From Thermoanaerobaculales bacterium (GTDB lineage Bacteria; Acidobacteriota; Thermoanaerobaculia; Thermoanaerobaculales; Sulfomarinibacteraceae), in contig JAZBOQ010000024.1 of assembly GCA_036351195.1 (NCBI GenBank), positions 26,669 through 90,668 on the forward strand: a stretch of DNA of 64,000 nucleotides, written 5' to 3'. The notes under the pieces were generated by a model, which saw only the letters and a list, made by a program, of their open reading frames with translations, was not told the origin of the DNA and did not search any database. The translations under genes and the position numbers were made by a program. Below, piece by piece: positions 29,408 through 34,769 of this stretch; the stretch's first letter is position 1, and every line of letters starts with the position of its first letter.

Positions 29408-29815
29408 GTGAAACGGTTCCGACTCCGACCACCGACGCGTGAGGAACGGCAACTGGCGGGCCTCTGGGCAGCCGCCGCCGTCTCTGCGATCGCTCTCCGG
29501 CCGGTGTGGGTGGTTCTGGCGCCCCATCTTCGCTCCTGCACATTCCACCGTCTCACCGGCGTCCCCTGCCCCACCTGCGGCACGACGAGAACGGCTCTGG
29601 CGATCCTCTCCGGCGACGTCGCCGGCGCGGTGCTGATCAATCCGCTGGCGGCGCTGGTCGGGGTCACCTTCGTCGTCGGAGGGTTCCTGGCGATTCCCTG
29701 GCTGCTTCTCCACTGGCCGCTGCCGTCGTGCGGCCTGCGCTGGACGCCAACGTGGACGGTAATCCTCGTCGCGGTCGTTGCCGCCAACTGGGCCTACCTG
29801 ATCGCCACCCTCTGA
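29408..29815 (+). CDS. DUF2752-like membrane protein
   Basis: CTFHRLTGVPCPTCGTTR and NPL motifs. Confidence 0.82.
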   Translation: MKRFRLRPPTREERQLAGLWAAAAVSAIALRPVWVVLAPHLRSCTFHRLTGVPCPTCGTTRTALAILSGDVAGAVLINPLAALVGVTFVVGGFLAIPWLLLHWPLPSCGLRWTPTWTVILVAVVAANWAYLIATL

Positions 29816-29852
29816 ACGACGACGAGCCCGCCCGAACCGTTCACGGACGACC

Positions 29853-30037
29853 TTATTGAGATTGAATCCTCATTTTATCAGATGCTCAGACGATACCGAG
29901 TGTGACCAGCCGTCACAGAAATGTGATAAGATGTTTAAAATCAATTAATTCATTATGAATTGAATGGCCATGTGGGCGATTCGTCAGATAACCAAAGTGA
30001 CATACGCTTGACAATAGTTATTGAGAACAGCTACTTT
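29853..30037 (+). promoter_or_regulatory. AT-rich regulatory region of the decaheme/porin operon
   Basis: TGTGAC-N5-GTCACA palindrome (29901-29917), imperfect TGAGATT-G-AATCCTCA palindrome, TTGACA at 30008 with TACTTT 18 nt later. Confidence 0.55.
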
Positions 30038-30210
30038 TCTATGGTGCATATGGAGCATCGCGACCGGCATTTCCTACCCCCCGATCAGTGAGGGGCTCCC
30101 GCCGTCCCGGGTGGACGGCCATGCGCATTCCCAACCGACAAGATCATGAAAATCCGGGGCTTGAATCGACCCCGTACATCGTTTCAGAACCATTGCGAAG
30201 GAGGTATGCA

Positions 30211-31107
30211 ATGTTGAAGAGGAGCCTGATGCTGGCGAGCCTCGCGGCAGTGCTGCTGGTACTTCCCGTCTCTGCTCAAGACGAGATGACCTGCGCCGAC
30301 TGCCACGACGAGGAAGCCGCCGGCATGACCAACCAGATCCACATGCGGATCGAGCCCTTCGAGGTCTTCGGCCGGCAGGTGGGTTGCGAGGGCTGCCACG
30401 GCGACGGCACCGCCCACATGGAAGAGGGCGACGCCGCGCTGATCCGCACCTTCGAGAACTGGACCCCCGACGACGTCCAAGCCTGCGTCGACTGCCACGG
30501 CAGCAAAGGGATGGGCGAGTGGAACGCCTCGACCCACGCCATGGAGAACATCTCCTGCGGCGACTGCCACGGTATCCACGAGGCGACGAACCCGCTGAAA
30601 GCGTGCAAGGACTGCCACTCCGAGGTGGTCGCTCAGTTCCAGCTGCCCAGCCACCACCCGCTGCCCGAGCGGATGATGGACTGCGCCAGCTGCCACGATC
30701 CGCACGCGGCCACCGAGGCCATGGTCAAGAGCAACCACATGCGGGTCAACGATCTCTGCTACACCTGCCACCAGTCGCAGGAGGGACCGTTCATCTTCGA
30801 GCACGAGCCCGTGCAGGAAAGCTGCACCTTGTGCCACACGCCCCACGGCTCGGTGGCCAATAACCTGCTCACCGCCAACGAGCCCATGCTCTGCCTGCAG
30901 TGCCACGAGATCCACTTCCACGCGGGTCTCTTCAGTCCCGAAGAGCACGAGGTCGAGGTTGGCGGCTACGAGCGGGGCAACCCGTTCGGCGTCGACGGCA
31001 TGAACCGGTCGTTCACCACCAAGTGCAGCACGTGCCACTCGCAGATTCACGGCACGGACCTGCCGTCCCAGAGCCTGGCCAGCGGTGGCCACGGCATGGT
31101 TCGGTAG
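30211..31107 (+). CDS. Periplasmic decaheme c-type cytochrome (DmsE/MtrA family)
   Basis: Signal peptide; ten CxxCH (CADCH, CEGCH, CVDCH, CGDCH, CKDCH, CASCH, CYTCH, CTLCH, CLQCH, CSTCH); GPFIFEHEPV, CHTPHGS, CHSQIHGTDLPS. Confidence 0.93.
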   Translation: MLKRSLMLASLAAVLLVLPVSAQDEMTCADCHDEEAAGMTNQIHMRIEPFEVFGRQVGCEGCHGDGTAHMEEGDAALIRTFENWTPDDVQACVDCHGSKGMGEWNASTHAMENISCGDCHGIHEATNPLKACKDCHSEVVAQFQLPSHHPLPERMMDCASCHDPHAATEAMVKSNHMRVNDLCYTCHQSQEGPFIFEHEPVQESCTLCHTPHGSVANNLLTANEPMLCLQCHEIHFHAGLFSPEEHEVEVGGYERGNPFGVDGMNRSFTTKCSTCHSQIHGTDLPSQSLASGGHGMVR

Positions 31108-31120
31108 AGGGAGGTCGAGC

Positions 31121-33262
31121 ATGAAAGCACTCAGAACACTCGTGCTGGCCACGCTCCTCATCGCCTCCCCCCTCGCGGTGGCGGCCGATGACGGCGACGA
31201 CAGCACCTTTGAAGGATCCATCGAGCTCGGCGGCAGCATCACCGACGTCGACGGCTCGGCGGACATGGCCGCTGAATACAGCACCATCGAGGAGAGCGTG
31301 GTGGGCAAGGTCAAGATGCTCAGCCACCAGGACTGGGGTTCCCTCGATCTCAAATTCAAGTACCTGGCGGACGATCAGAACGCCGGCCACCTGGACTTCG
31401 ACATCAAGCGCATGGTGCGCTCGCACAACACCTATACCAAGTTTCCCCACCGGCTCGGCCACCAGCCCATGACCTTCCTGGAGTCGACCTCGCGCAACGG
31501 CAAGGTCGTCCGCCACACGGATGAAGATCCGAACCAGGAGTACGTCATGAACTACTCGGTCTTCGAGGACAGGACCGAGTTCCAGTTCCCGGGCTTCCGG
31601 CCGCTGACCCTGGCGGTGGAGTTCCGCGAGCAGAAGCGCAGCGGCCACACCCAGGCCTTCACCACCAACCACTGCGACAACTGCCACATCAAGAGCCAGT
31701 CCCACCGCCGCGACCAGACCACCAGCGACGGTACCCTCGAGGCGTCCATCGGCTGGAAGAACGGCGTCGTGCGGGCGCGCTTCACCGACCGGCAGCTGCG
31801 CGAAGGCCGCCCCTACGTCACGGGGACCTTCGATAAGAACCTGCACCCCGAGCTGCAACTCCCGGTCTTCGACAACCGGATGCAGTACGACTCCGACGTG
31901 GGTGAGGTTCCCGTGGACCTGAAGCCGGAGATCGACAAGAGCACCACCCGCCTGGACTTCCGGTGGGCGTCGAAAAACGGCTTCGCCATCACCGCCAACG
32001 GCGTCTGGGCCGAGACCGAGAACAAGTACACCGGCAACGAGGCCGAGTACTCCGGCTACGTGGTCACCGCGGCGAAGCGCTTCGGCAACCACCTGCGACT
32101 GCGCTGGCGAGGCAAGGTCTACACCACCGAAACCGACGATGTCTTCATCGACACCATCGAGCGGACGACGCCGGCCGGCGCCCATGCGGGCTTGACCTAC
32201 GAGGATGTCTACGGTGACAACTTCGACCACTGGCGCTACTCGGCGCTGAACCGCGACGGGCTGGAGTCCAAGCTCGATGCCAGCTATCGCTTTGGAAGCA
32301 AGCTCGGCACCCTGCGCGGTTTCTGGAACTTCAAGGAGATCGACCGCGACTACTTCGAAGTCGCACCCGGTGAGCGGCAGACCACGTCGAACGTCCTCGG
32401 GCTCAGCTACCGGATCCGTCCGGCCAAGGGCCTGCGGTTCGACGGCGAGCTCAAGTACGGCGACATCAACGACGCGTTCATGATCGTCGACGGCAGCTGC
32501 TCGACCCTCGTCTCCGACCGTTACCCGAACCCGTGGCAACCGGAGACGCCGCAGTATGTCGATCAGCACGAGACCCGCATCGGCGACGGGACCGCTTCTG
32601 CCTCCAGTTGGATGCAGGCGGCAGCCTCGCTCGGTTGGAGCTTCGGCCAGTCGACCCTCAGCGGCCGCGTGGTCTACTGGGACGGCGACAACACCGACGG
32701 CGACCTCACCGATTGGTCCAAGGAGCGCACCGCGGCGACGGTCACCTTCTGGTCGCCGGGAGGCGAGAACTGGTCGTGGTACGCCGCCTGGGCCTACCAG
32801 GATCTGACCATGGGATCACACGTCTGCATCCCGATCTTCGATGGTTGAGCAGGCACCGTTATGGGTGGCCAGGATGGCTACTCTGATGACCGGCTCAACT
32901 ACACCGAAGAGAGCAACAGCCTGCTCGCAGGCATCAAGATCCGACCCAGCGACAAGTGGGCTCTCGGGTTCAACGCGGGCTACACAACTTCGGAAGGCGG
33001 CCTCGACCAGTTCGACCTGCCGGCCGATGACTACGTGGCGATCACCCCGCCGATGTCCTATGACTTCTCCAAGTCCCACACCTACTCCGACCTCGACCTC
33101 TCGCGCCTGAACTTCGACGCCATGTTCAAGCTCAAGTTCACGGAGAACCTGTGGATGCGCCTCTGGTACAACATCGTCGACTTCACCGACGACGACCCGT
33201 ACCTCTACGACACCAGCGGAACGCTCCAGATCGCCACCATCACGGCGGGCCTGTCGTTCTAG
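31121..33262 (+). CDS. MtrB/PioB-like outer-membrane beta-barrel with CxxCH and in-frame TGA (putative Sec576), 713 aa
   Basis: Signal peptide; amphipathic beta-strands; CDNCH at residues 185-189. ORFs 31085-32848 and 32861-33262 are in the same frame, separated only by TGA 32846-32848. Only the joined product ends in a C-terminal Phe (AGLSF). Confidence 0.82.
32856..32893 (+). promoter_or_regulatory. Candidate bacterial SECIS element
   Basis: GGGUGGCCA-GGA-UGGCUACUC upper stem (32863-32883) on a GUUAU/AUGAC lower stem; G-first apical loop 23 nt after UGA. Confidence 0.7.
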
Positions 33263-33282
33263 CACGGTCACTCTTCAACTCC

Positions 33283-33313
33283 AACGCCCCGCCTCCCGGC
33301 GGGGCGTTTTTTT
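33283..33313 (+). terminator. Intrinsic terminator of the decaheme/porin operon
   Basis: AACGCCCCGCC-TCCC-GGCGGGGCG plus a T7 run. Confidence 0.9.
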
Positions 33314-33317
33314 GTCG

Positions 33318-33398
33318 ATGCGAGATGCGAGATGCGAGATACGAGATCAATCAGGCGTCGTAGGGTTCAATGTCATCTCGCATCTCGTATCTTGCATC
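33318..33398. repeat. Inverted heptamer arrays (ATGCGAG)n / (CATCTCG)n
   Basis: ATGCGAG x3 plus ATACGAG, then the complementary CATCTCG CATCTCG TATCTTG. Confidence 0.7.
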
Positions 33399-33423
33399 GG
33401 CCGAACGCCGCTCGGCGTTCGGT

Positions 33424-34698
33424 CTAGATGACGGTCCCGTCCGGTATGATCGCGTTCTTCGGGATGACGACAATACCGTCGTGGATGGCCCACCCTTCGC
33501 CTTCGGCGTCGGCGACGCCCTCGGTATTGACGATCCGGACGTTACGGCCGATGCGGGCGTTCTTGTCGATGATGGCGTTCTCGATGAACGAACCCTCGCC
33601 GATGCCCACCGGAGGCGAGCCGGCAGGCGCTGCCGGGTAGTAGCCATCCACACCCATGACCATGGTCCTCTTCAACGTGGCCCCGTTGATGTTGCCGCGC
33701 AGACCGATGACCGAATCCTCGACGGTGGCGTTCACCACCCGAGAGCCGTCCCCGAGCAGCACCCGTTTGAAGCAGCACCCGTCCAGCCGGGCGCCGGGAA
33801 GGTGTCGAGGACGGGTGTAGATCGGCCAGTCGCGGTCGTGAAAGCTGAACGGCGGATCGAACTTGACCAGATCCATGTGGGCGTCGAAGAAGGCCCGGAT
33901 GGTTCCGATGTCTCGCCAGTAACCCTTGAAGAAATGCGCCTGGACGCGACGCCGTCCGACCTCGGCCGGAATCACCTCACCGCCGAAGTCGACGAAGTCG
34001 TTGTCCAGGGCCTCAAGCAGCGCCTGCTTGCGGAAGAGATAGATGCCCATGGAGGCGAGATAGGGTTGATCGGCGCGAACACCCTTCTCTTCCAAGAGCT
34101 CAGGCGCGACCTCCATACCATCGCGCTCTTCCGGAGTCTTGGGCTTCTCGCGAAACTCGAGGATCTGCCCGTCGTCGTCCACCCTCGCCGCGCCGAAGGC
34201 GGTGATCTCCTCCTCCGAGCACGGCATTACCCCGATGGCGACGTCGGCATCGTGGAGCATGAGATCCGACAGCAGGTCCCGGTAGTCCATGCGGTAGAGG
34301 TGGTCGCCGGCCAGGATGAGCACGAAGTCGCCGCGGATCTGCTCGAAGACCCGCCGGTTCTGACGCACCGCGTCGGCAGTGCCCTGGAACCAGCTGGAGT
34401 CGCCTTCGGTCTGTTGGGCGGCCAAAATCTGGACGTAGCCGGTGGAAAAGGTGTCGAAACGGTAGGTCCGGCCGATGTGGCGGTGGAGCGAGACCGAGTT
34501 GAACTGGGTGAGCACGTACATCCGCTGCATGTGCGAGTTGATGGCGTTGGAGATCGGGATGTCGATCAGGCGGTACTTGGCCGCGATGGGCACCGCGGGC
34601 TTGGAGCGCATCTGAGTCAGGGGATGGAGGCGCGTCCCACGCCCTCCGCCGAGGATCAGGACCGTAACATCGTGTGCGAGATCTTCAACTCGAGGCAT
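33424..34698 (-). CDS. glgC: Glucose-1-phosphate adenylyltransferase
   Basis: LGGGRGTRLHPLT, KPAVP, WFQGTADAV, GDHLYRMDY, ASMGIY, YWRDIGT, IIDKNARIG. Confidence 0.96.
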   Translation of the reverse strand: MPRVEDLAHDVTVLILGGGRGTRLHPLTQMRSKPAVPIAAKYRLIDIPISNAINSHMQRMYVLTQFNSVSLHRHIGRTYRFDTFSTGYVQILAAQQTEGDSSWFQGTADAVRQNRRVFEQIRGDFVLILAGDHLYRMDYRDLLSDLMLHDADVAIGVMPCSEEEITAFGAARVDDDGQILEFREKPKTPEERDGMEVAPELLEEKGVRADQPYLASMGIYLFRKQALLEALDNDFVDFGGEVIPAEVGRRRVQAHFFKGYWRDIGTIRAFFDAHMDLVKFDPPFSFHDRDWPIYTRPRHLPGARLDGCCFKRVLLGDGSRVVNATVEDSVIGLRGNINGATLKRTMVMGVDGYYPAAPAGSPPVGIGEGSFIENAIIDKNARIGRNVRIVNTEGVADAEGEGWAIHDGIVVIPKNAIIPDGTVI

Positions 34699-34769
34699 GT
34701 CCACCACCCTTGAGGAAACCGTGTCCACCGCCGAGTTTAGCACCCCCGGGAACCGGCGACTTCAGTCCT

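Follow-up and report, generated by a model that had tools for sequence, protein, structure and literature searches.

The question raised by positions 30211 to 33313 of the stretch analyzed here is whether a gene for an outer-membrane barrel that carries an in-frame TGA codon is one gene for a selenoprotein or two pieces of a broken one, and what a selenocysteine (Sec) might be doing in such a barrel. The stretch, referred to below as the window, comprises 64,000 nucleotides of contig JAZBOQ010000024.1 (positions 26,669 to 90,668) from a Thermoanaerobaculales bacterium, and all coordinates are those of the window. An earlier reading of the letters, hereafter the original prediction, had proposed that the barrel gene, which follows a gene for a decaheme cytochrome, is read through at the TGA with the aid of a downstream hairpin. 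Our analyses indicate that the two genes in 30211–33262 very likely form one operon specifying an OmcK/OmcL-type (GSU2203/GSU2204-type) porin-cytochrome conduit for electrons, and that the barrel gene encodes one 713-residue selenoprotein, with proposed roles for both Sec and heme at the exit site.

Both genes lie on the plus strand. The first (30211–31107) has the ribosome-binding site AAGGAGG and the stop codon TAG, and its ten CXXCH motifs, together with the family model matches given below, mark its product as a decaheme c-type cytochrome that is OmcK/GSU2203-like and MtrA/DmsE-like. The barrel gene (31121–33262) starts with an ATG fourteen bases past the cytochrome gene, with a GGGAGG ribosome-binding site at 31109–31114. 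As originally read, it is a single frame with zero shift, running from the ATG at 31121 through the TGA at 32846–32848 to the TAG at 33260–33262. Read-through of the TGA gives a product of 713 residues with Sec at position 576 (...HVCIPIFDG-U576-AGTVMGGQDG...) and the C-terminus ...AGLSF. Residues 1–21 (31121–31183; ...PLAVA-AD, cleavage site placed by eye) appear to be a signal peptide, with a helix at residues 2–21 in the structural model. The C-terminal 137 residues (32849–33259) follow the TGA in frame and supply strands 22–26 of the modeled barrel (residues 586–712) and the terminal Phe.

An intrinsic terminator on the plus strand (33283–33313) follows the barrel gene; its hairpin at 33283–33308 has 11 pairs, 9 of them G-C, and is succeeded by a T run. 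A plus-strand scan of 29800–33500 found, besides this site, only its nested shorter reading at 33290–33306, in agreement with the expectation that the only strong terminator lies after 33262. The cytochrome gene was immediately upstream of the barrel gene in all 48 related loci for which upstream DNA was available. Comparison of the seven neighboring open reading frames (ORFs) of the window with the relatives' loci gave scattered matches only (glgC at four other loci, the rest at one to three), and this comparison of window ORFs with the relatives' flanks revealed no conserved third gene.

Were translation to end at the TGA, the gene would be a pseudogene or a split barrel, yielding a truncated product of 575 residues and, from ATG 32861, an independently translated piece of 133 residues. 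These are exactly the two ORFs that gene callers output, and an in-frame ATG does lie 12 nt past the TGA. The distribution of the codon among homologs argues against such a stop. In a first sample of 61 related genomes, 37 had a homolog, and all 35 match rows spanning residue 576 contained at least one TGA (34 had one and a single row had two). Fifty loci were fetched for alignment, some of them representing the same contig reached twice and one ending before the site; the TGA was in the same column in 49 of the 49 that reach the site, the frame always continued, and identity to the window protein among these loci dropped to about 30%. The residues on both sides are conserved as well, with the motif P-x-[FYM]-[DN]-G-U-[AG]-[AG]-[TG] flanking Sec. 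No homolog was found for which IFDG is the true end.

Some members of these samples deserve comment in their own right. The distant homolog L069 (G052:C454) has two in-frame TGA codons within its match, one of them at the conserved site. L042 and L051, two close homologs at 71% and 58% identity, were found in metagenome assemblies recorded as Actinomycetota and Planctomycetaceae, whereas all the other relatives carry Acidobacteriota labels; in the protein tree L051 sits on a very short branch among Sulfomarinibacteraceae rows. Mis-binning or gene transfer could account for these labels.

The few homologs that lack the TGA are equally informative. A second sample comprised 401 genomes of the phylum, of which 44 had a match; 41 rows spanned the site, and 37 of these had one TGA and four had none. 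In all four TGA-less homologs the aligned codon is one for Cys (TGT or TGC). When the whole library was queried with the C-terminal 152 residues, 64 proteins were returned, and the only full-length relative among them, P0082 (725 residues), also has Cys at the site. The Cys-form homologs are contiguous proteins of 718–736 residues, as would be expected of an intact barrel of which the TGA is an internal codon. In total there were 42 distinct full-length homologs, 37 with Sec and 5 with Cys, so that position 576 is occupied by TGA or Cys in the manner that the original prediction had set as its check. Three further Acidobacteriota genomes (G193, G445 and G240) have TGA-free frames of 652–736 residues whose match to the profile is confined to its N-terminal half (48–338 or 33–347); these may be paralogous barrels without the Sec region.

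The split that gene callers produce is thus a property of annotation, as had been anticipated. All 23 database matches among close relatives are 572–609 residues long and end at the TGA, with no full-length Cys form among them (these were found only in the deeper searches), and 61 of the 64 proteins returned by the C-terminal query are orphan ORFs of at most 160 residues, those called by gene callers being 54–160 residues long. The two-piece arrangement has other weaknesses: ATG 32861 has no GGAGG-like ribosome-binding site, its Met is not retained among the homologs, the sequence in the distant group being U-AGGATLGQ, and the 5' piece has no C-terminal aromatic residue. Together with the covariation in the hairpin described below, these observations make a true stop highly improbable.

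Since the genome is a metagenome assembly of 310 contigs with an estimated contamination of 4.9%, the TGA might be suspected to be an artefact of sequencing or assembly, or a nonsense mutation of recent origin. Identical codons are present in dozens of independent assemblies, and contigs from four public runs span the TGA with zero differences at 32846–32848. Based on the agreement of these contigs, assembly error is excluded, and for error or recent mutation as a whole we consider the probability close to nil. One contig, from an RNA library, agrees with the window throughout 32795–32945 and gives at most a weak hint that this region is transcribed.

The genome also has the means to decode the codon. 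Genes for selA (475 bits), selB (351.6 bits, two same-frame matches combined) and selD (371.1 bits) were all found above their cut-offs, along with a tRNA-Sec (73.2 bits) that ARAGORN calls SeC(tca), and so each component that the original prediction had named was present. Two additional matches were observed in the same genome: a second selB-like match (G000:C146:208-981; 307.7 bits, above cut-off, model positions 1–256, near a contig end) and a borderline second match to the tRNA-Sec model (G000:C308:13026-13109; 47.3 bits against a gathering score of 47). These could represent a second copy, a fragment, or contamination. In the nine genomes of relatives that were tested, Cys at the site goes with the absence of selA. 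None of four Cys-form genomes (completeness 92–98%) had selA above the cut-off, and selA was found in five of the five TGA-type genomes tested, which we chose from five families.

A further requirement for Sec insertion in bacteria is an RNA hairpin, the selenocysteine insertion sequence (SECIS) element, and one occupies 32846–32897 on the plus strand. Its lower stem (32846–32853/32890–32897) includes the UGA, and its upper stem (32863–32871/32875–32883) carries the apical loop GGA at 32872–32874; the upper stem and loop together, GGGUGGCCA-GGA-UGGCUACUC (32863–32883), form 9 base pairs closed by a G-first triloop, and the spacing from UGA to loop is 23 nt. The 60 nt beginning at the UGA fold with −26.0 kcal/mol (z = −3.07), and 3 of 200 shuffled sequences folded equally well. 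The bacterial SECIS criteria quoted in a 2026 review specify an apical loop of 3–9 nt with G as its first or second base, an upper stem of 4–16 bp, 16–37 nt from UGA to loop, and a minimum free energy of at most −7.5 kcal/mol; with its GGA loop, 9 bp, 23 nt and −26.0 kcal/mol, the element falls within all four. The G-first loop and the spacing were as originally described. The middle stem was not: RNAfold pairs CGUUA with UGAUG around a bulged U, in place of the GUUAU/AUGAC register, and relatives do not conserve this stem.

Comparison among relatives showed that the outer parts of the hairpin are maintained. In an alignment of 33 of 39 distinct sequences (six distant ones, which have a different register with a bulge, were left out), 96% of cells in the upper stem and 82% in the lower stem were paired, as against at most 52% in slid registers. 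The sole variable pair, 21–35, joins position 3 of a Gly codon to position 2 of a Tyr, Phe or Ser codon, and it was UA in 21 sequences, AU in 11 and GC in one, never unpaired (n = 33). On a protein tree of 31 full-length rows, built with the SECIS region excluded, this pair underwent six changes of state, at least four of which are forced by well-supported branches. The mean energy of the local hairpin was −12.1 kcal/mol in 39 Sec forms (weakest −9.8), versus −0.7 to −3.8 kcal/mol in four Cys forms, a comparison that is partly confounded by the lower GC content of the Cys-form genomes. Codon usage is also unusual here, in that T-ending codons, which had been noted as unusually frequent here, make up 5 of the 16 codons after U576 compared with 44 of 714 (6.2%) in the gene as a whole. 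Only 11 of 698 sliding windows of 16 codons contain five or more T-ending codons, and every one of them starts at codons 570–580.

The conserved codon, the tracking of Cys with the absence of selA, the SECIS element and the genome's own machinery are four independent lines, and together they are the reason that we read the TGA as a Sec codon. On the comparative evidence, then, SelB and tRNA-Sec are predicted to insert Sec576 at the UGA of 32846–32848, guided by the hairpin just downstream.

The question of which protein this is was answered by family models. The barrel matched NCBIfam NF041027, "GSU2204 family CXXCH-containing (seleno)protein", with 486.9 bits (cut-off 350) over residues 10–575 and model positions 2–580 of 580. 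The end of the model coincides exactly with the Sec position, and both the CXXCH and the Sec directly past the model end are present in the window protein. Judged by this match, the barrel is a new member of an already curated selenoprotein family, and the statement in the original prediction that GSU2203/GSU2204-like pairs in Geobacter are annotated as candidate selenoproteins was borne out by NF041027, by NF041028 and by the table of the 2026 selenoproteome review. The cytochrome matched TIGR03508 (DmsE family decaheme) with 207.5 bits, above its cut-off of 192.2.

The family has been described in two separate contexts. The table of the 2026 review lists it as an MtrB/PioB-type outer-membrane barrel with one Sec, giving neither a motif nor a function. 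The source named in that table, reference 61, is the 2008 GOS paper, whose main text contains none of the terms "cytochrome", "outer membrane" and "MerB" (its supplements may hold family lists), and Peng 2016 does not mention the GSU2204 family. On the electron-transfer side, the available portions of the Geobacter work report raised expression of GSU2203 and GSU2204 with hematite and magnetite. According to the parts of Murali 2023 available to us, methane-oxidizing archaea have syntrophic partners with an "OmcKL" porin:cytochrome conduit, of which the expression in HotSeep-1 is four-fold above that of OetABI and next to which a gene for a periplasmic cytochrome is missing; selenium and selenocysteine are not mentioned in the main text of that paper. 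We found no functional study of the Sec in the GSU2204/OmcL family in the literature on GSU2204, NF041027/NF041028/GSU2203, OmcL, or selenocysteine together with porin-cytochrome systems.

To what extent the barrel resembles known conduits was assessed with an AlphaFold2 model built from an 18-row alignment, which had a mean predicted local distance difference test score (pLDDT) of 76.5 and a predicted template modeling score of 0.71. The model has 26 long strands, and its top match in the PDB was 6r2q_B, the MtrB of the Mtr complex (E = 3.5e-19, template modeling (TM) scores 0.67/0.73), followed by TonB-dependent receptors at TM scores of about 0.4. At the level of the modeled fold, therefore, the barrel is shown to be a 26-strand MtrB-like sheath. 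The MtrB/PioB sequence model TIGR03509 was not among its NCBIfam matches, and the Cys-form relative P0082 scored 23.4 bits against it (cut-off 240). In the model, the connections after even-numbered strands are all turns of 2–6 residues and those after odd-numbered strands are mostly long loops. According to the portion of Edwards 2020 available, the periplasmic turns of MtrB are tight, and its long surface loops bend across the pore, leaving only heme 10 of MtrA uncovered.

The likeness of the cytochrome to MtrA is evident in its sequence. Residues 26–289 matched PDB 6r2q chain A with E = 7.4e-37, which shows the upstream decaheme to be MtrA-like at that level, and its signal peptide, as read from the sequence, has no lipobox cysteine. 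The PDB sequence file labels 6r2q chain A "Cystathionine beta-synthase"; given its length of 333 residues, the decaheme match and the title of the entry, chain A is the decaheme MtrA and the label a slip. Based on the MtrA-like match, the signal peptide without a lipobox, and the adjacency of the two genes, we infer that the cytochrome is sheathed within the barrel and is not a surface cytochrome.

Conservation across the 42 distinct full-length homologs (37 Sec and 5 Cys) was used to identify the conserved core of the barrel. The heme c attachment motif CDNCH (C185-D-N-C188-H189; 31673–31687, plus strand) lies in the loop between strands 7 and 8, and its CXXCH is invariant in 42 of 42, the five Cys forms included. 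Invariance at Cys-type positions is limited to C185, C188 and U/C576, and among histidines to H189 and H110. Of the connections between strands, the most conserved were the CXXCH loop (183–190, 0.82) and the Sec loop (573–585, 0.81), compared with a strand mean of 0.55. The parity of the strands places both the CXXCH loop and the Sec loop (strands 21–22) on the same long-loop face of the model, at the tips of its longest hairpins, and from the model we infer that this is the face that is extracellular in MtrB. The conserved core on the long-loop face is thus a heme motif and Sec, and not a Cys–Sec pair.

The last point bears on the chemistry that was originally proposed, a selenenyl-sulfide redox cycle between Sec576 and Cys569 (C-x6-U). 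Pairing of Sec with a Cys close by is common among selenoproteins, and Cys569 is present in the window protein and in 32 of the 42 homologs. The remaining ten have Thr (five sequences, forming one Sec-containing clade) or Ala (all five Cys forms), and no Cys other than those of the CXXCH is invariant. With Cys569 variable and missing from every Cys form, the selenenyl-sulfide mechanism cannot be general, and this part of the original prediction did not hold up; we think it improbable.

In the mechanism that we favor, the decaheme cytochrome would sit inside the barrel and carry electrons across the outer membrane. The CXXCH in the strand 7–8 loop of the barrel would bind an eleventh heme that accepts electrons from the outermost heme of the decaheme, and the CXXCH and Sec loops together would form an exit redox site replacing an MtrC-type surface cytochrome. 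Sec576 would then act as a lone redox-active or heme-proximal selenol and not as half of a Cys–Sec pair.

Several points weigh against this scheme in whole or in part. The case for selenium incorporation is a comparative one, with selA having been tested in only five TGA-type genomes of our own choosing. A covalent heme on the barrel, and the complex that it would form with the decaheme, are likewise predictions. The barrel had no Pfam family at E ≤ 0.01, and its profile found nothing among PDB sequences at E ≤ 1, for which reasons its likeness to MtrB, at 12% identity, is one of fold only. The cytochrome scored 320.7 bits against NF041028 (decahem_GSU2203), which is 4.3 below the cut-off of 325, and Murali 2023, in the parts available, calls OmcK an extracellular cytochrome, contrary to the sheathed MtrA-like reading given here. 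Finally, the CXXCH loop (180–192) and the Sec loop (572–585), whose meeting is hypothetical, have pLDDT values below 50 and are 14 strands apart in the 26-strand barrel.

Sec might instead have no role at the barrel heme and act as a surface nucleophile toward an external substrate (polysulfide or elemental sulfur, selenite, or metal ions), or serve in folding or assembly of the barrel. In favor of this reading, the long loop that holds Sec is on the side of the barrel that in MtrB faces outward, and published work ties the reduction of selenite and tellurite to another Geobacter porin-cytochrome cluster, one to which the Sec-containing cytochrome ExtKL belongs. The co-conservation of CXXCH and Sec/Cys in 42 of 42 homologs suggests, by contrast, that the two act jointly. 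We regard a role for Sec apart from the heme as a distinct possibility, if not the one we would expect.

A bolder version of the joint exit site may also be considered. The barrel could be a heme-and-selenium enzyme, in which the heme at C185/C188/H189 is capped or ligated by Sec576 from a hairpin of the opposite wall, so that a heme with a selenolate ligand, or with a selenol next to it, would lie immediately over heme 10 of the decaheme within the sheath. Its nearest analogues are the His/Cys-ligated hemes of sulfur-oxidizing cytochromes, and we know of no natural Sec-ligated heme. This proposal is speculative and, in our judgment, rather unlikely to be correct. If it were true, the two-protein conduit would end in a catalytic site without need for an MtrC-type surface cytochrome.

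These findings are of interest since two literatures have treated the same protein apart: selenoproteome work lists the GSU2204 family, and electron-transfer work treats OmcL as a plain porin. New here are the near-universal presence of Sec in the family, the tie between the Cys forms and the absence of selA, the covariation in the SECIS element, and the core formed by the heme motif and Sec. With Sec and the heme motif as its invariant core, the analyses suggest that the conduit has its business end in the "porin". According to the available parts of the studies concerned, the OmcKL conduit is highly expressed in methane-oxidizing consortia and induced by iron oxides in Geobacter; if the porin is indeed the business end, selenium supply could limit mineral or interspecies electron transfer by this route. 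Split-gene annotation will also lead to undercounting of the OmcL-type barrel in Acidobacteriota and other sediment bacteria.

Just past the operon terminator, the DNA between the convergent genes (33317–33398) is repetitive. The heptamer GCGAGAT occurs there in approximately four copies (33320–33347), with an inverted complement at 33374–33398, the arms being 17–18 nt long and 94% complementary. A 14-nt double heptamer with at most two mismatches was found six times in the window, five of them at 33317–33398, against 1.2 expected. A perfect 10-bp inverted repeat at 33401–33422 (CCGAACGCCG / CGGCGTTCGG) adjoins the 3' end of the minus-strand glgC-like gene (33424–34743), and is probably the terminator hairpin of that gene.

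Of the systems to which this conduit can be compared, the GSU2204/OmcL family is the closest. The window barrel scores above the NF041027 cut-off and has the CXXCH and the one Sec of that family, and the decaheme directly upstream is GSU2203/OmcK-like, although just under the cut-off of NF041028. They differ in that the host here belongs to the Thermoanaerobaculia (Acidobacteriota) and not to the Desulfobacterota, and the likeness is judged by the family model.

The MtrA–MtrB pair of the Shewanella MtrCAB complex (6R2Q) has the same 26-strand fold, a decaheme partner that corresponds to the window cytochrome through its match to chain A, and the same division into a face of short turns and a face of long loops. 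In contrast, the barrel described here has no sequence-level match in Pfam or the PDB, the pair is not accompanied by an MtrC-type gene, and the barrel has its own invariant CXXCH and Sec. To our knowledge, MtrB itself has neither. An outer-membrane barrel with its own c-type heme motif is also found in Cyc2 of iron oxidizers, a fused cytochrome-porin; Cyc2 has an N-terminal cytochrome domain and a smaller barrel and is not known to have a Sec or a decaheme partner, whereas here the CXXCH lies within a loop of the barrel.

The final comparison is with ExtKL of the Geobacter ExtHIJKL cluster (NF040886), which the review table places beside the GSU2204 family and which Jahan 2018, in the part available, describes as a selenocysteine-containing multiheme cytochrome. 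Like the barrel studied here, it is a selenoprotein in an outer-membrane electron-transfer cluster of metal reducers. The location of the selenium is different, as in the Ext system a soluble five-heme cytochrome carries the Sec and the porin ExtI lacks one, whereas here the predicted Sec is in the barrel itself.

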